Assembly: GCA_039621445.1 (NCBI GenBank)
Contig: CP154954.1
Location: forward strand, 48,587,847 to 48,651,846
Length of the DNA: 64,000 nt
Direction of reading: 5' to 3'
Origin: Euglena gracilis
Taxonomy: Eukaryota
Both the position numbers and the translations under genes were made by a program. How positions within the stretch are numbered: the stretch's first letter is position 1; each line of letters starts with the position of its first letter. The notes beneath the pieces were generated by a model. The model was not told the origin of the DNA. It ran no database searches and worked only from the letters and a program-made list of their open reading frames with translations. Below are positions 2,658 to 64,000 of this stretch, in pieces.

Positions 2658-3757
2658 TTTGGTTTTGCAGGCGTCGTCTGGGGGGGGAGTCCACTGTCAG
2701 GCAGAAACAAGTCTGTGGTTTCGCTGACACCCTTTAAACTGAATGCAGGGGGGATCAGGGATTGACATCCACAATTTTTCCGCAAATTTCCGCGGTTTTT
2801 CTGCAATGTCCGCAATTTTCCTGCATTTTTTCCCTTCATTTTTCTGCACAAACTTGAAAACTGAAGGTGCAATGAGTTCTGGCCATTCCACAAATGATTC
2901 GCAAGGCTGGGGGTGGAACGCAAGTGCTTTTTTTTGCATTTCCTCCCAATTTTGACAAAATTTTGGCAAGTTGGCCAATTTTGATAATGCTTGTATTTTT
3001 TCCCTTTGAGTTCTGCTGGTAAATGATTTTGACTGAGAAAAATTTCGCATTTGAGCCAGATTTTTCCCTGAGACCAAACTTTTTGTCATATTTATTCGTC
3101 ATTTTTTTGGCCAACAAATCCCATAATTTTTTTCAAAAAATTGCGATAATTACAAAAATTATGTTTTTGGATTGTTTGTTGGGGAAAAATGTGAATGATT
3201 TGCTGAAAACATCCACCCATTGCAATTACAAATTGAAAAGGAAGTGAATTTTCTCCCTTTTTGTCCCTCTCCAGCAAAAGTGTGTACGTTCCCGATATTC
3301 CTGTTCCCCCCTGCTGGATGTTTTAGTGTTCTTTTCAAAGTGCATTTTCATACTCAAAAACTACCCAAATCCAACACTTTAAAATGAAATGTATTTTTTT
3401 TGTTTATTGATTGATTGCATTTGTTTTTAATGTGGTTTTTTTGCATCCCATTTCCGACAGTCCGTGCTTTTCCCTGGTGCCTGTTGCAATTGCTCTCCGA
3501 TATTTTTCTGCATGAGGAGTCCCACTGTTCTGATTTTTCACCGGGATGTGGAGAAGAAAACCCGGGACCGTCTCAGGGTCTCTAACTTGACCGAGGCGGC
3601 ACCCCCGCGACTGCACGCCCCTGCCCCCCAGCCCCGCCCCCTGCAAGGTCTGGTCCACCGGGGCTGTAATTTGTTTTGGGCCCGCCTTCCGCGAGGTGTC
3701 GCGACACCCTCCTTCTGCAGTTGAGGCAATGTGCCCCGTGGGAGGGTCCCTGCCCCC

Positions 3758-54681
<50,924 letters not shown>

Positions 54682-56350
54682 CCCCCTCCCGCGGTCCACC
54701 GGCGCGGATTGGCCTGCTTTCCAGCTGCAACCTGTGCTCCCGCCGGGTCTCCTCCCTTCTCTGGCAAAAGAATAGTTCCATTCTTGCCGCGACGACTGAC
54801 CCCATCTCACACGCCTTCTTTGTCTCCCTAATCCCGGGCGCCTGACGACGAGAACTGCTGTTTTGCCCTGCCTCCCGTCGATCACAGTGCCAGTGGTTGT
54901 TGTTTAAACCCCTCAGCGCTTCGTTTCGGTTCGCCATGTATCTGCTTTGCCAGACCTGCTCTGCCTCTCTCACTCGTCGCACCCTCACTGAGCAGTTATT
55001 CTGCGCTGGGAGACAGTTTTTGGAAGAATTCCTGTTTCAATGAACCCTTAATTTTCACCCTGGAAACATTTTATGATTTCTATTCTACGAAAATGCCGTG
55101 CAGTGAAACCCCTCCCCTGAACCATTCACCGAATTCTTTGTGGGAGAAGCTTTTTGTATGCGCATTTCTGTGTCTGTGTGTGGATCATTCTCAAAATCAC
55201 TCCCGAACCCACACTGCCAGTCAAAGTCAGACCAGGGTCAAGGGAGGGGGAACGCCCAAATGTGCTGTGTGCTACAGTGATGTGGCAGCCACCGCTCCTG
55301 TGTGGAATTGGTGCGACGGAGGGGGAGGTGAGATTTGCACCTAGTGGGCACAAAGGTCGCCAACCGCTGGTGCGTGAATGGTCTTTTCGCCGGTAGGTGG
55401 CCGAGGCTTTTCCCGGGCATTGCCATCTCTTCCCATTTGTCATTTGGTTAGTCAGGTGGTCATTTGCTGAGTGGAACCCTTCCCGGCTGGTACCAACCAA
55501 CTCAACCCTAACCCAAGCTCCTGACTGCCTGGCGAGTGCGCACAGTTCCATCGTACGAGTGGAGGAGAGCGCAGGGGCATGCCTTCACCACGACACATTA
55601 ATTGCACCCCATGTTTTTGGCAGGAGTTCAGCGGGGGGAAAGAAACAAATTGCATAATTTGCATTTTTGAATCGAAAATCAAATATTTTGAACATTTGCA
55701 TAATTTACATTTTTTGTATGATGATTTTGAAAAAAGCACATTCTTGCTTTTCTTTTGCATATTTTGACTTTCCGATTTTTTTGGGGCATTTGTACAGGCA
55801 AATTTCTCCACTTTCAGACAACTGGAAGTTGCATGCCTCACGTTTTTGGACCAATTTCATTATACCAGTAGTTGCATTATAAAATATAAGTGGAATCCAC
55901 TTGGTGAACCAACCATGTCACTTTGCAAGTTTGCACCACATTTTCTTTTAGTGTTGTATTTTGGTGCAGGTGAAATTTTTCTAAGTCCTCTCCAGCAGAA
56001 AAGTGTACGGCTCAGTGTGGAGCTGTACACTAAAAAAAAAAATGCAAGTTGCATGCAAATTCCTTTACTTAGTTAGTTTAGGAGCTCAGCTTTGGAGAGC
56101 TCCTAAAGGAATTTACCTGCTGCATTTTTTTTGCATTTTTGCACTTTTTTGCACTTTTTTGCACTTTTTTGCATTTTGAGGAGCCTTGTTGGATCCCCCC
56201 CCCTGAACGTTGTAATTTTGGGCAACTCCCCGGGGATGACAGATACAACGGACCTAAACGGTTCCCCAACTGAATCCCTCTCCCGTGCCACGGCGAATGT
56301 GTCGCACGGCTTGTGCCCCTGTCGGCCCCAGCGCTCCGGCCCATCCATCG

Positions 56351-58886
56351 ATGTCCGAGGGGGTTCCGAGCGACGAGGCCCCGGGCAGGCTGAATTTCAA
56401 GGCAAGGTCGACCCCACCCCGGGGGGGGGGGGGGGGGTGCCTGCCTGTGCATGCAGTCCACGGCAGCCAGATCTGACCTCCCAGGGGGTCGGGCACATGG
56501 CCAAGAGTGCGGGTGTCGGAGTGCGGGTGCCCTGGAGTACCTGGGCGGGCAGGCATCCCAGCCCCCGGGGGATTGCGTGTCCGCCTGGTCGTGGGATTAA
56601 AAGCAAAAAATAGGCCCGTTCTGGACTTCTGGCGCCTTCGGGGCCAGAGTGCCTTGGTCGAGTGCCCAGCCTCCCCCCCCCCCCCGGGGGGGTGGGCGAA
56701 GGCAGCCTGACCCCGGGGGGCACGGCGGACCACTGTGCCAGCCCGCCGCCAGACGCCCCCCCGCTGGAGGCCCCCGAGGCGGAGGGGCACTCCGAGGACA
56801 GCAGCGTCGGGGCCCCGGCGACGGCCGCTGCGGAGCAACCCCCGCCCCGCGCCACCGTCTTACAGGAAGGCGGCGCACGGCGTTTGGTGAGGGGTTGGGG
56901 GCATTTGGTCAGGGGACCACACGACGGCATGCATGTTCGCAAGGTCTGTTGGTCTGTTGGTTGCTGGTGGCATGTTGCAAGGTCTGTTGGTCCGTTGCTG
57001 TGTTGGCTGTGTTTGCTGTGTTGGCTGCGTTGCTGTGCGCGTTGCCTGTCGTGTTGTTGGCCCGCTGCTTGCCCCCCCCCCCTGCGCTGGGCGGGCGTGG
57101 CTGAGCGCCATCCGCAGCGGCCTCGCGCCGTCCCCCGAGGCCAAGGCCGTCGGCCGGCCCTCCGCCGGCTCCGAGCGCGACCTCGCCGCCCGGTGAGCTG
57201 CCGGCCGCGGGGCCCGGTCTCGGCACAGCCCAGTGGGCATCGGGGGATCGGGGAAGGGGCAAGTGCTGTGTGGGGGGGGGCGGCTCACCGGCCCCGGCGC
57301 GCCACGCCCGGCCAAGGGCAAGGGGCGGCGGAAGCGGGCCACGCCCGCCGCCCCGATCAACACCGCGCGGTACAAGACCCGCATGTGCATCAACTGGGAC
57401 CGGGACGCCCAGCCCCGCCACCCTGGGCCTCCGAACCGGCGTTGGCGGCCCCGCCATATTCGCCAAACCATATTCGCCCCCGCGTCGGGCGAATACGGTT
57501 TGCTGGAGCCGACGTGTGCGGCCACTGCGCAGCGCAGGCACAGCAGCCGATGGGGGTAAAGTGCGATGGGTGGGGCTCTGGCCTGTGCCCCACCCCTCAC
57601 GGGGCGGGGGCTGGCCCCGGCAAATGCCCGTACGGCCCCCGCTGCCAGTTCGCCCACGGCATGCGGGAGCTGACCCGGCACCTGAACGCCCAGCAGTACG
57701 GGGGAGAGCCCCACGACGCCGGCCACTGCCCAGGCCCCAGCCTGCCTCGCAGCCCCAGTTGGACAGAGATGTGAGAGTTCCGTAATTTGCATTTTTGTGG
57801 GGAAAAAATGCTAAATACGCTTTTTGCGTTTTTTTTGCATACTTTGCCCTTCCAATTTTCAAAAAATTCGTCGGGGGATTGCACAGAGCAATTGCTCCTG
57901 TACCAGGCCAGAACAGAAAGTTGCATGCAACCAGGCTTGTGCTTGGTCGGGTGCCTACCCCACGGGGGGGGGGGGGGGGGGGGGGCAGGCACCCCATAGC
58001 ACCCATCCGACCCCTCCCGGGGAGGGGGGGGGTGCCTGCCCATAGCAGGCACCCCCCTCCGACCTCGGCGCCAAAGGCGCCGGGGGCCCAGAAAAGGCCA
58101 TTTTCAATGAAAATTTTCTGGGTCCCCCCTGGACCCCGGGGGGTGTGCCTGCTAGGGGCAGGCACCCTACAGCACCCACCCACCCCCCTCCCCCCGGTCG
58201 GTAAGCACAAGCATGCATGCAAAACATTTCTTTAAGCCATGACCCCCCCCAATTTCCTGCCGCCCCCCCCCCAATGGTGCGGCCGCCTCCGGGACAAGGA
58301 GCAGGCGCTGTTGGGGACGTCCGAGCATTTCTGCCTTGAGGGCCAGGGGGCCGAGGTCTGCTGCCTCTGCCCCGCGCCCACTCTGCCGGAGATGCCTCCA
58401 GCGGCGTTCGCCCCACCACTGCCGCCGCCGCCGCCCCCACAAATGCTGTGTGTGCCGGCCAGCCCGGCCGTGCTTGCCATGCTTTTCCCATCCGACCCCA
58501 CCGTGGCCAAATCATCTCGGGTCCAATCCATTGATTTATTTGACACCTGTGTTTCCCCTCCTTCTGGGGGTTCGAGGATAGGTGGGTGGGTTGTGCTGCT
58601 GCCCCCAGTATCGTATGGTCTATTCTACGCCCCACCTCCTCCCCACTCATTTGATTCCCTGCCCAGGAGTTGGTCAAACTCAGCCCGGTGGAGGGGGGGT
58701 TGTCTCCCCCTGTATCAGAAGTCTGGACCCGTGTGCTTTTCTATACCATGCCATTCCCTTCACACCACACCTGCCAGAATGGGAAATTGCCAGGGACATC
58801 AATGCGCTGATTTTTGGGTGACAATTTCTCAGTGCAAAGGGGGGCTGGGTTAAGATGGGCGTACCTGTGCATATGCGTAATCATAA

Positions 58887-58982
<96 letters not shown>

Positions 58983-59008
58983 GTACATGCACATGTGTAC
59001 GTCGCGCG

Positions 59009-59047
<39 letters not shown>

Positions 59048-59667
59048 TCAAACATCAAACACCCAACCGGCAACCAAACCGGCGGCCGGGGTGCCCTCCG
59101 CTTTCCTCCCTGTACTCCGCGGGGGTGCCCCTGTCGCTGGTCAACACGACGCCCTACCCGTGCCCGCTCCCCGCGATCGGCTTTGCCCCGAGCCAGGGCG
59201 TCGCTTCATTCGAAGTGACCCCATCCCCAAGTCCAGCCAACAGACGCTTTTTTCCAGCCTGTGGCCTCCTCCCCTCATTGACAAGTTTTTATTTTTTCCA
59301 GCCGCCTGAAGGGTGGATGAGCGGTAATGGGTTTTTTGCTTTTTGGAGGCACAAAAAAATGGGTAAAAATGGGTCAGAGTGGGCTGCCAGGGCAAATTTT
59401 GGGTTAAAAAAAAAACGAAATTTTGCATAGTTGGCAGTTTTTTGCACTTTTTGCAGTTTCGATTTTTGGAACCTGTTCGACCCCAGGTCAGGCCCAATCA
59501 CAACCGCCCTGGAACCCCAATGGAGAGGGGGGGGGGGGGCAGTCAGCAGCCTTCTCCAGCCAGCCCAGGTTTTCCAGCCTCTCAGCTTGACCTCCCCCTG
59601 GTGGTGGGTCGTTAAGCGACGCCCTGCCCTGGGCTGCCTGCAGCCCCTGCCGGTGTGCGGCATTTAG
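56351..59667 (+). CDS. CCCH (C-x8-C-x5-C-x3-H, TIS11/TTP-type) zinc-finger RNA-binding protein, multi-exon
   Basis: Spliced finger [27 protein letters not shown] (intron 57407-57618). ATG 56351; exons 56351-56382, 56715-~56860, ~57250-57406, 57619-~57720, ~58275-58490, ~59120-59190, 59632-59667 (TAG). Middle boundaries uncertain. Confidence 0.85.
57932..58215. mobile_element. MITE family A copy (hAT-like), intronic
   Basis: CAGGCTTGTGCTT...TAAGCACAAGCATG; flanks CATGCAAC / CATGCAAA (7/8). Confidence 0.85.
58893..58981. repeat. (AT)n microsatellite
   Basis: Direct reading. Confidence 0.95.
59191..59631 (+). mobile_element. Intron that is itself a TIR element (family C, introner-like)
   Basis: Perfect 13-bp TIR CAGGGCGTCGCTT (59194-59206) / AAGCGACGCCCTG (59614-59626); flanking 8-mers CCCCGAGC / CCCTGGGC. 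Confidence 0.8.
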
Positions 59668-62600
59668 GCGGGCAGGGGTGGCCGGCGCGAGGTCAGTCCG
59701 TTGACCTCGGCGTCGGGGCGGCTCCCCCTCGCCTCGGCTGAAGTTGCCAGCCGGCGCCTGTACTGTAACCTCTTTCGAGGCTGGCTTATTTCCGTTGCGA
59801 AGCGAAGTTAAAATTTTTGGATCTCAAAATTGACCACCAATAGTGTGTTCCCCGAAGCCCCCTCCCCCCCTCGTATGTCCCCCGAGGAGATGGGTGGGTT
59901 GGTAACCCCTCCCCAGATGCTAAAAATACCTCTGGCCAGGAAACCCGTTCCAGGAGGTTGACCAGTGCTCGACTGCTGACCAGCAAAGTTGAAGCAAATT
60001 CAGGTCCCGGCCCGGGTTTCCGAAATCGTTCCTTGTTCTTTCTTCTTGTCGTGGAAGTGTTAAGCCATTGCCCAACTCAATTTTTGCAGAAAATTTGAAG
60101 AGGCTAGTTTGAAGGAGTAAGTCCAGGGCCAGGGGGGGACCAAAAATGTGTTTTTGCCGGGGGGTTTGGCATGTTGGCGTGAATTTTGGGAGTTTTCTTG
60201 TTCTTTTGCCTGTTCTTCTAACCAAGAAATGCACCGAAGAAATGTCGGAATGATGCGAAAATGCAAATTTTACACCAAGGAATAACTTGGGGTTTTGCTC
60301 TAAACCAGTAATTGCCCTGGGACACCTCGGCAGACGCCCCCCACAGTGCCCCAATAATTTGGACTCCTCCTTGGGGGACGCTTTCGCACCGCGTGCACCA
60401 CGTGCGAAGAATCATTCCCAAATGTGCAATTTTCACAAATTTCCGCCAGAACTCCATTTGTAGTCGATTTCAATTAATTTTGGCTGGTTTCCTGCAAATC
60501 AGCCACTTTTGGCCTCTTTTGGCTTTTTTTGCCAAACCAATTTTTTTGGAACACTTTTGGCTGTTTGTATGCATTTTTGCTCATTTACATCAATTTTTGG
60601 CTGCTTCTGGCCTGTTTTCCACATTCGTTTGGCCATTTTGGGCACCTTTCACTGCTTTTAGCCACTTTTTTATGCCCATTTTAGGCCATTTTTGGCCGTT
60701 TTGTGGCCACTACACAGATGCAGTGGCCATTGGCACAGACTCGATGAGATGTGGTGGCCAGATGATTTGGGCCAAAAAAAAAAACAGAAAACGATCAAAC
60801 TCACCCAAAAATGCTATTTTTTGGTGCAGTTTTGTAATCGATGGGCGCTTTGCGGGTGCTTTCTCTCATTCAGTCATTTTAGGTTGTAACTGATTCTTGT
60901 CACACGGTGCCACATGGTGCACGTGGCGGAAGCTTCCCCTTGGCTTTCCTCATTCTCTAATTTTCTAAAAATAAAAATGATCATGTGAAGCAAAAAAACC
61001 GGGATGTTTTGCTCTTGACCAAATACCGCCTTTTTTGTTATTTTTTTCTCAATGACATAAGATTAATCTATAAATTATTTAATAGTAGTATTATTATTTT
61101 ATTTCTGATGGGAAGTGATTTCGACTCAAAATAATTACTCCATTTGGGCACCTTTTTTTTCCTGGGACCAAACTTTTCCTCCTGAATTTGCATTTTTAAT
61201 AATTTTTGGCCAACAATTTGCTTCCTTTGAGAATCAACATGTTCAAAACCACAAAAGAACATAATTTTTGACCGTATTGTTACACCTAGACTTGCATTTA
61301 AGCTCGTGCGCCTTTCTTTGCGCAACTGGGCAAACGGAGTGACTTGTTTACATTTCGATTCTCGGCAAAAAAAAAAGTTATATTTACCCCTTTTTTGATG
61401 GTTTGGGGACAGGGAGGTGGTCTGGGTTTGGGTGGGGTCCCCACCCACCCACCCACCACACACCCGAAGGAGCAGAGGTTGGCACTGAAGTTGGCCTCAG
61501 CGCTCGCACATTTGCCCAACCTCCGTGCCGGCCCTCCGCCGTCGCTCCCGCCCGCCCCGCTGCCCGCCGGGGGTGCCTCTCCCGTCAGGCACCGCCCGGT
61601 GATCACTGGGTCACACGTGACGTGCCTGCCTCCTTTCTGGCAGGGCGTTGCTGCCATCGGAAGGCTCGGCCCACCATTTTGTGCTTTCGGGATGGACCAG
61701 GTGAAAATAGAACAGTTCAAATGGCTCAACTCCCGTGGTATGGTTTTGAACAATTGTGTGGATTTCTTTCAAAGTTGATCCGATTCATACGAGCGACGTC
61801 GGATCCGGGGGGGGGGGGGCAGGTTTGGAGCCGAAGTCAGGTGCAATTGGATAGCAACCCGTCTGTCGGTAATGCGTAGGAACAAAGTGGTCGCCGGGTT
61901 TGTAAATGCTGTCCCTTAAGGTTGACCCCCTTCCATCACATCCTGGCGTGAACCAATCGCTGGGGGGGTTACCCTTGACATGAAACCACCCCTGGGCCAA
62001 ACGGCAAAGCTGCATCTATATTACGCCTTATAGAGAGCAAATAATAACAGCCGGACAAAATGTGCTGCCAGGTATTTAAGAAAGACATAACCAAGCATTT
62101 TTCCCCCTGCTGCTCATCCCATAGTTCTATTTCCTGGTTCTGGGTGACTGGGTATGTCGGCTTCAGGACATAAATTGTTTTACGGTACAGTAACTAACCC
62201 AAGAAATGGTCAGTCGTTTCAGGAGGCTCCCTCCTGAAATGACCTCCAGGTCGGAATTTTTTCATTTCCCCACCGAGTGCAAAGCAATGACCCCCGGTGT
62301 GCCCTCGGTTTATGCCCTCGCTGTACAGCCAACCAGCTGGATCTCATCAATTCCCACGTTTCCGGAGTGGAGGGAGTGGGGCAGCAACCAGCCCAAGCCT
62401 CGGCAACCCCTGAACCCTGCCTGACCTTTTGTTGCCCGGCGGTTGGTCGGACCGCGTCCGGCCGGCTGCTGACTGGCAGTTGTAGGGTGCGGGGGGCGCG
62501 CGCCCCTCGGAAACCGATGCGCACGCTGACCTTTGGATAACCGCTCCGCGGCGTTCTTTCCCGTGTCCAGGTGTGTGTGTGGCGTTGCCTGACCTGGTGA

Positions 62601-62736
62601 CTAACTCAGCAGAGACACACCAGGGGTGGATTCCGCCCCCTTCGTCACACGCCTTTTGCCCGCCAGATGCCAAAGCTGTCTTTGCCACCCTCAAACACAC
62701 ATGCCTACACTGCCACACACTCACGCTCACCACACC

Positions 62737-63125
<389 letters not shown>

Positions 63126-64000
63126 AGAGCGATCTGTCAGGGACAGGATTTCGGTTTTTTTTCCCTGCCCCTCAAGGACCGCCATTTTTTGACTGCTATT
63201 TGGCCAAAAGGCGGGCTGAGACCGCTATGAGGCTGGAATCGGTCCCGAAATTCAGAAGGAAAAATTTCCACTTTAGCCACTCAGGCCGAATGGCTGGACA
63301 TCAAAACTGGCCAATTCTTCAAAATTTTTCTGTCAGAGCATCTGAAAATTTGCCCATCTGACAGGAAATCCACAATATTTCGGTGAAGCACAAGAGAGAA
63401 AAACCAGTAAATAAATCCAATGTTTTTGGACCATCCCCCATCCTCCCAAAACATGAAAGGGAAAACCCCCTGGTAGGCGTCTGAAAAGTGATTGAGTTTC
63501 TTTGAAAGTTGAAAATGACCTCCCCTGGAGGTCGGCAAGCAAATGGTCCAGTGTTCTTCCTGGCCAAGAAAGCATTGCTGCTGGTGGCACCTAAACACCC
63601 TTGCAGAACAGCCGTGCAGACCCACTGTGATTGTGGCTGGAGTCTGCCTTTCGACTTGCATTATGTTTTGTGCAAGCCAGCAGGCTATAACAAGCACAAA
63701 CACATCAGACAACATGCATGATTCAACACAGAACTATTTTGCATACATTATTTGATACCTTCGTAACCTGTTGGCTGCACATATCCCATATTATACAAAC
63801 CAGTACAGAATCCAGATCTCTTGGATAAAGCCACACATGCAACCATTCAAGGAGCTTTGAGGCGACCACCTTCCTTCGGCTGTGGAGGCACGGTTGGGGG
63901 GGGGTACAGTTGGAAACATCCGTGTGCAATAGGAATGGTGCATGCACTCTTTCCCAGAACCTTTTCTCTAAGTACTGTGAAATATACAATAATGATGAAG

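Follow-up and report, generated by a model that had tools for sequence, protein, structure and literature searches.

The 64-kb window analysed here, a stretch of 64,000 nucleotides from Euglena gracilis (contig CP154954.1, assembly GCA_039621445.1), carries at 56383-56714 a genuine nonconventional intron in the gene for a CCCH zinc-finger protein. This intron was probably born as the insertion of a MITE (miniature inverted-repeat transposable element) with an 8-bp target-site duplication (TSD). In the proposed mechanism, a small non-autonomous cut-and-paste DNA transposon with CAG...CTG ends would have inserted into an exon, its transposase making an 8-bp staggered cut and leaving an 8-bp duplication. 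The inverted ends would then pair in the pre-mRNA, and the nonconventional splicing machinery would cut 3 nt upstream and 5 nt downstream of the helix. What is removed would be the element plus 3 + 5 = 8 nt, equal to one TSD copy, returning the mRNA to its pre-insertion sequence. There is good support for equating the intron with the element and a single 8-bp TSD; the direction of causation, with the splicing geometry fitted to the TSD, is one that we infer. An original prediction made from the letters alone had proposed this equation for elements of the hAT superfamily.

RNA evidence came from contigs X1, X2 and X4 (runs presumed to be RNA) and from raw RNA-seq reads X21, over 54020-62700. 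Joints are written as last retained base -> next retained base, and slidable letters are those that fit both sides. Joint 56378->56711 skips 332 nt and is supported by one contig each in X1, X2 and X4 and by six raw X21 reads; seven letters (CCCCGGG) are slidable, and the removed interval lies within 56379-56717. The 332 nt correspond to the 324-bp element 56386-56709 plus 8 nt. The intron lacks GT-AG ends (CC..GA in the joint register as mapped). Eight registers are possible, and 56383-56714 is the sole one with CAG at +4..+6, CTG at -8..-6 and a 7-bp helix. With the cuts given as slashes, the local sequence is GAC GAG GCCCC/GGG CAGGCTG ... CAGCCTG ACCCC/GGG GGG; the intron thus begins GGG-CAG and ends CTG-ACCCC, followed by a g, the purine that starts exon 2. 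When the intron is folded in full, the minimum-free-energy structure (z = -4.45 against 100 shuffles) retains the terminal helix. The spliced exons form an open + strand frame from the ATG at 56351, which encodes the CCCH zinc-finger protein. No back-splice joint for this intron was present among the joints listed. Because the RNA lacks the element plus 8 nt, the 3 + 5 arithmetic leaves one copy of the duplication. The features of the locus are:

56351..56382, + strand: exon 1 of the CCCH zinc-finger gene, start codon to canonical donor (spliced open frame, RNA joints)
56378..56385, + strand: upstream 8-bp repeat GCCCCGGG, 5 nt exonic then 3 nt intronic (7/8 match to the downstream copy)
56383..56714, + strand: nonconventional intron, 332 nt = 3 nt + element + 5 nt (RNA joint, register)
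56386..56709, + strand: MITE-like element, 324 bp, with 7-bp terminal inverted repeats (TIRs) CAGGCTG / CAGCCTG and internal G18 and C13G7 runs
56710..56717, + strand: downstream 8-bp repeat ACCCCGGG, 5 nt intronic then 3 nt exonic

The flanks GCCCCGGG/ACCCCGGG are identical at seven of eight positions. Taken alone this value is unexceptional, since two of 72 cross-pairs, in which the donor 8-mer of one intron is set against the acceptor 8-mer of another, also reach 7/8. In the raw RNA run, the G run at 56421-56438 and the C/G runs at 56672-56693 gave rise to chimeric reads of the 'opposite strand' type and to loose ends of poly-G.

High significance for the 8-bp duplication is confined to the TIR elements that were identified independently. 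The masked window was scanned for inverted repeats with CA..TG ends and a 12-nt TIR with at least 10 matches, flanks being ignored, and the results were compared with 500 permutations and 12 mis-registered controls. Flank identity of at least 7/8 occurred in 5 of 466 candidates (expected, 0.35 by permutation and 0.08 from the mis-registered controls), and three of the 466 had perfect 8/8 flanks (0.036 expected). When flank lengths of 3-13 were tested on 842 candidates, perfect repeats exceeded expectation at length 8 only (3 versus 0.047). Across nine elements the matches per TSD position were 9, 9, 9, 8, 8, 9, 8 and 6 of 9, against a frequency of 0.26 beyond the box, and the repeat does not continue into -1 or +9; these elements were selected for at least 7/8, so the informative part of this profile is its sharp edges alone. 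Their TSD 8-mers are diverse (cross-pair mean 2.8/8), and therefore no consensus accounts for the duplications. TIR matches in elements other than that of the target intron are 12-13 of 14. The elements measure 95-536 bp, apart from a 2.3-kb candidate without a Pfam match in six open reading frames (ORFs), and no coding capacity was seen. Four of the nine stand outside the repeat families described below:

36810..36928, + strand: 119-bp element CAGGGTTCGA...TCAAACCCTG, perfect TSD CACACAAC
33107..33201, + strand: 95-bp element CAGGCTTCTC...AAGAAGCGTG, TSD CCCACGAG/CCCACGAA 7/8
35521..37815, + strand: 2.3-kb candidate element CAGCCTCCGC...CCGCAGGCTG, TSD GACCCCAC/GACCCCCC 7/8, hosting the 36810 and 37504 insertions
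52250..52785, + strand: 536-bp element CAGGGGTTTG...AAAAACCCTG, TSD GTCGGCGT/GTCAGCGT 7/8, within the putative intron 51855-52917 of the original prediction

An inverted-repeat scan allowing any termini had been dominated by microsatellites, poly-G/C runs and a palindromic array, and was replaced by the masked CA..TG scan. That array, at 10185-11745, consists of tandem 43-45-bp palindromic units (TGGTGGGGCCGCGGCCGGCCGCGGCCCCACCA plus an A/T run) with many inverted self-matches. A further repeat pair, 28932-29322 and 19337-19752 (inverted, 0.4 kb, 82% identity), has TAAACCCCC...GGGGGGTTA-like ends and AAAAATAAGACCCCCCCC tandem units and shows no clear 8-bp duplication; it is probably a different element type.

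Comparison of the window with itself revealed dispersed repeats. Homology among the three copies of MITE family 1 runs from CAGGCTTGTGC to GCACAAGCATG; the flanks are unrelated, and an 8-nt direct repeat frames every copy. Family 2 has two copies with 69% identity (alignment score 382, versus 30 +/- 4.5 for shuffles). In both the 3-copy and the 2-copy family, homology stops at the CAG / xTG ends:

37504..37765, + strand: MITE family 1 copy a, CAGGCTTGTGCTTA...TAAGCACAAGCATG, perfect TSD CTCCCATC
45504..45789, + strand: MITE family 1 copy b, TSD CTTCCTCA/CTTCCTCG 7/8
57932..58215, + strand: MITE family 1 copy c, nested in the RNA-confirmed intron 57728-58365, TSD CATGCAAC/CATGCAAA 7/8
22288..22755, + strand: MITE family 2 copy a, CATACATCTCT...AGAGATGTATG, perfect TSD GTTGGGCA, within the putative intron 21810-22904 of the original prediction
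16823..17228, + strand: MITE family 2 copy b, TSD TTCCTGAC/TTCCCGAC 7/8

For each of two RNA-confirmed introns, 59191-59631 and the target intron, the window contains a single diverged homolog (59-76% identity); judged by these alignments, both introns belong to dispersed repeat families. Intron 59191-59631 is defined by joint 59189->59631, which skips 441 nt and is supported by three contigs and nine reads. Its element, 59194-59626, aligns end to end with 26759-27171 (score 184, shuffles 27 +/- 4). The element of the target intron has a shorter homolog, 38208-38384; their alignment starts at its first base and scores 106 (shuffles 27 +/- 4.5), with 76% identity in 111 columns:

59191..59631, + strand: RNA-confirmed intron, element 59194-59626 with 13-bp terminal helix CAGGGCGTCGCTT..., flanks CCCCGAGC/CCCTGGGC 6/8
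26759..27171, + strand: full-length homolog of 59194-59626, CAGGGGGTC...GCGACGCCCTG, flanks GCCGCGGG/ACCTTGGG 5/8
38208..38384, + strand: shorter homolog of the target element, CAAGCTGAATTT...GCAGCCTG, preceding an ATG-initiated ORF by about 20 nt

Among the nine introns with canonical geometry defined below, these two lead in flank identity (7/8 and 6/8), and they are the sole ones with terminus homologs in the window (2/2 versus 0/7). The predicted relation between TSD identity and repetitiveness is therefore seen at the top two introns, in what is a very small sample. TSD elements also lie inside larger introns in three of nine cases (one intron RNA-confirmed, two putative), and two of the nine lie inside 35521-37815. 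The original prediction further suggested that TSD identity could serve as an age clock. Identity is 7-8/8 for nested elements, which must be the younger ones, and 3-7/8 for the elements that host them. This comparison is circular, as the nested elements were chosen by high TSD identity, and an age clock is only loosely consistent with it.

Several side observations concern these families. Element 38208-38384 lies about 20 nt before its ATG-initiated frame (38385-38560) and the target intron 32 nt after its start codon, both at gene 5' ends. CnGn palindromes resembling the runs of the target intron recur within the MITE families. All homologous CA..TG pairs (37504/45504/57932; 22288/16823; 56386/38208; 59194/26759) share the same + orientation, in 5/5 comparisons, and this is the strand of the two RNA-mapped genes; an orientation bias of CA..TG elements is possible. 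RNA contig depth is 136-837 at 57790-58369, around the nested MITE copy, versus about 55 on adjacent exons, probably reflecting many family copies that are transcribed or kept as excised RNA. MITE family 1 was also sought in metagenomes with two patterns, of which one had no matches and the other matched one unrelated AT-rich contig, L001.

The geometry of 3 nt, stem and 5 nt on which the original prediction was built holds for most introns. We checked 11 RNA-supported introns for a canonical register, that is, 3 nt, a helix from +4/-6, and 5 nt, and nine of them have exactly one such register. This agrees with the published splicing code (PMC12501133), which has 3-bp and 5-6-bp spacers, a CD'G-CH'G motif and an exon that begins with a purine. 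The helix letters of the nine are CAG/CTG in six, CGG/CCG in two and GAG/CTC in one, and none of the 13 RNA joints listed has GT..AG ends in the mapped register. In the RNA-confirmed introns 54245-54582, 57188-57295 and 59774-61503, CGG...CCG (twice) or GAG...CTC replaces CAG...CTG with the +4/-6 helix kept, and these compensatory changes argue that pairing rather than the letters matters. Intron 54245-54582 (CGG...CCG) had been placed at 54226-54554 by the original prediction and credited with 6/8; joint 54242->54581, which skips 338 nt, moves it, and its flanks in the correct register match at 4/8. Both 56383-56714 and 59191-59631 were mapped correctly.

Attempts to enlarge the intron sample gave little. 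The helix rule alone, used as a predictor over 54020-62700, returned 33 to 1822 candidates with just three to six true introns among them and was of no use for this purpose. A homologous-protein search with exon 54074-54241, aimed at further introns, gave no match. Four unmatched RNA read or contig ends were searched in the window; two led to the extra introns 53386-54072 and 62670-63583, and two had no match. Joint 60778->60860 is weak, comes from a single run and has no helix.

A number of results weigh against the origin of these introns by transposition, the first group being the flanks of the introns themselves. Among the nine canonical introns, the donor and acceptor 8-mers match at 4, 4, 7, 5, 4, 3, 6, 1 and 3 of 8 positions (mean 4.11). 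Cross-pairs of the same 8-mers reach a mean of 3.46/8, well above the value of about 2.2 that base composition predicts; the reason is a consensus, approximately nnnCC/GnC, common to donor and acceptor 8-mers. The permutation P value is 0.06 for all nine introns and 0.60 without the two examples taken from the original prediction, P(max >= 7) is 0.33, and the two cross-pairs at 7/8 equal the target intron. The likeness is thus near the composition null, most introns in the window carry no recognisable TSD, and junction composition accounts for most of the 8-mer likeness that mapped introns show. The six 8-mer pairs given in the original prediction were recomputed exactly (7/8 for 56383-56714, 6/8 for 59191-59631, for the putative intron 7175-7281 and for the misplaced 54226-54554, 5/8 for the putative 21810-22904 and 3/8 for the putative 51855-52917); an identity clearly above a composition-matched null, the result on which it had staked its case, did not emerge for ordinary introns. 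The sharp drop outside the 8-nt box that it anticipated is visible as a match frequency of 0.514 inside versus 0.317 at 20 flanking register positions, a comparison confounded by the junction consensus. Three introns also deviate from the canonical geometry: 58457-59099 has 3/6 spacers and CAG...GTG, 56815-57127 has a 12-bp helix starting at +9, and 62668-63581 (also placed 62670-63583, and known from one contig) has CAA/TTG and spacers that sum to 7. Among the elements, independent splicing was seen for none of those with a perfect TSD, family 1 ends in ATG, not CTG, single changes in which abolish splicing in the assay of PMC12501133, and the flanks of 38208-38384, TACACGTG/TGCAGAGC, match at just 3/8. 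Repeats of 7 nt, 6/7 in each case, flank the strong-TIR elements 2746-3313 and 15307-15835 (13 of 14, CAGGGG...), which reflects either a variable duplication length or the loss of a base following insertion. Finally, a Pfam scan of 20 ORFs in the window returned no transposase domain, the sole match being a sub-threshold MIR.

The flank statistics bear most directly on an explanation without transposition, in which the 8-mers are alike because the splicing machinery, or coding sequence, favours certain letters at the two cuts (pyrimidine/purine, C/G-rich spacers), with 3 + 5 = 8 a coincidence. The cross-pair mean of 3.46/8 with its two values of 7/8, and the recurrence of GCCCCGGC-like 8-mers at unrelated introns, are what such preferences would produce. 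They do not account for the membership of 56383-56714 and 59191-59631 in dispersed families ending in CAG/CTG, nor for look-alike elements in non-coding contexts that have exact and diverse 8-bp repeats. In addition, a recently gained intron of E. agilis gapC carries eight-nucleotide direct repeats (PMC4770533), and the published splicing code has spacers that are random in sequence (PMC12501133). Taken together, these points make an origin in junction preferences unlikely. The authors of PMC4770533 attribute the gapC repeat to break repair, and the direct repeats in the window could likewise be footprints of double-strand-break repair with captured filler DNA. Break repair gives variable repeat lengths and fillers that are unrelated to one another, whereas the window shows a fixed length of 8 and inserts that have TIRs and fall into families, which leaves this explanation very improbable.

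We therefore favour insertion of a MITE with an 8-bp TSD. For the claim that an intron is an element plus one TSD, the removal of element plus 8 nt in RNA and the 8-bp duplications at TIR elements speak in its favour, while the flank statistic at introns adds little. As a broader and more tentative proposal, to which we give slightly less than an even chance, nonconventional splicing may be a system for 'precise excision' in RNA that is tuned to a single transposon population and cuts 3 and 5 nt out from the CAG...CTG helix.

Within the transposon reading, the superfamily may be hAT-like, for which TSD length and the CAG end together suggest about an even chance. An 8-bp TSD and YARNG ends typify hAT elements (PMC3014272). 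CAG, which fits YAR, is present at nearly all element ends, although family 2 starts with CATAC. About 4 of 15 elements have G as their fifth base (CAGGG), and most have C (CAGGC, CAGCC). The preferred target of the hAT element Hermes is nTnnnnAn (PMC10368747). T stands at TSD position 2 in five of nine elements and A at position 7 in five of nine (10/18 versus 0.215 expected, binomial P = 0.0016, in a tiny post-hoc sample); the TSD of the target intron, GCCCCGGG, does not fit this pattern. The elements resemble hAT MITEs in their 8-bp TSD and short TIRs beginning with CAG (YAR..), with target 8-mers that may lean to nTnnnnAn, and differ in the fifth TIR base, in the want of a transposase among the ORFs scanned and in the two elements with 7-nt repeats. 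The hAT assignment of the original prediction accordingly keeps its TSD length and CAG end, whereas the full YARNG is found in a minority of elements. An element of known intron-like behaviour is Ds, which Giroux is said to have described in 1994 as acting as an intron in maize.

Mobilisation of these 8-bp-TSD MITEs by a non-hAT transposase, whether Merlin, P-like or of an unknown family, is possible, if somewhat doubtful. Two Merlin families with 8-bp TSDs are reported from E. gracilis (PMC8101967), and a full-text literature search found no report of hAT elements in Euglena. The low count of full YARNG ends and the 7-nt repeats at the two strong-TIR elements point the same way. Merlin TIRs, as given there, end 5'-GG, are 24 bp or longer and accompany 8-9-bp TSDs (PMC8101967). 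The elements in the window share with Merlin the Euglena genus and the TSD length, but their duplications abut CAG directly, not GG, and their TIRs are 7-14 bp. More generally, CAG ends (as YAR), TSDs of 8 bp and short TIRs are in keeping with hAT (PMC3014272), and the T2/A7 enrichment, within its small sample, favours hAT as well.

The target intron shares the known traits of euglenid nonconventional introns as described in PMC12501133, PMC3935182 and PMC4770533: no GT-AG ends, CAG/CGG at +4 pairing with CTG/CCG at -8, 3/5-nt spacers, a purine-first downstream exon and a junction that is slidable through direct repeats. In E. agilis, about 70% of introns are reported to be of this kind (PMC12501133), and their excised form is a full-length circle (PMC11282704). 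A MITE origin has been proposed earlier (PMC3935182), and 'TSD-like' repeats have been reported (PMC11282704). Already published, then, are the proposal of a MITE origin, the TSD-like repeats, spacers of 3 and 5 nt and the requirement for CAG/CTG. The link 3 + 5 = 8 = TSD length, and 8-bp-TSD MITE families with intron ends, were not found in full-text searches of the literature. The accounts consulted name no superfamily, and the sole 8-nt repeat they give is ascribed to break repair.

The closest parallel is that of introners, transposon-derived introns known from Micromonas, Aureococcus, dinoflagellates and Fritillaria (PMC11282704). As here, a non-autonomous TIR element lies in genes, splicing removes the element plus TSD-derived sequence, and insertion is nearly neutral. 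Introners are spliceosomal and draw their splice sites from element plus TSD (PMC11282704), in contrast to the end-to-end RNA helix with fixed 3/5 offsets in the window. If the proposed origin is true, euglenid introns would be a second, mechanistically distinct case of transposons making introns genome-wide. Details of introner elements are reportedly given by Huff et al. in 2016.

The origin of nonconventional introns has been open since the 1990s, and a MITE origin has so far been drawn from inverted ends and 'TSD-like' repeats only. Shared CAG...CTG ends, 8-bp duplications and a sum of 8 for the two spacers defined by experiment would bring that suggestion closer to a concrete, testable model, although the sample is one 64-kb window. 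The model predicts that the empty site equals the mRNA, that insertions are spliceable in both orientations and that the transposase partner is identifiable. Under the broader excision proposal, symmetric ends would permit removal in either orientation, and exon insertions of (hAT-like) MITEs would be silent. This would explain why nonconventional introns form the majority, and each such intron would represent a dated transposition event.

Two minor observations concern the RNA-mapped genes. Base 54745 of the window, which follows the upstream gene's stop codon, is missing from all covering RNA contigs and reads (full depth, four runs); the cause is an error of assembly or else a difference between strains. 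The CCCH gene, whose stop codon lies in exon 59631-59773, has two nonconventional introns in its 3' untranslated region, 59774-61503/61505 and 61638-62417 (alternative 61639-62401), and both use alternative acceptor sites that differ between runs.

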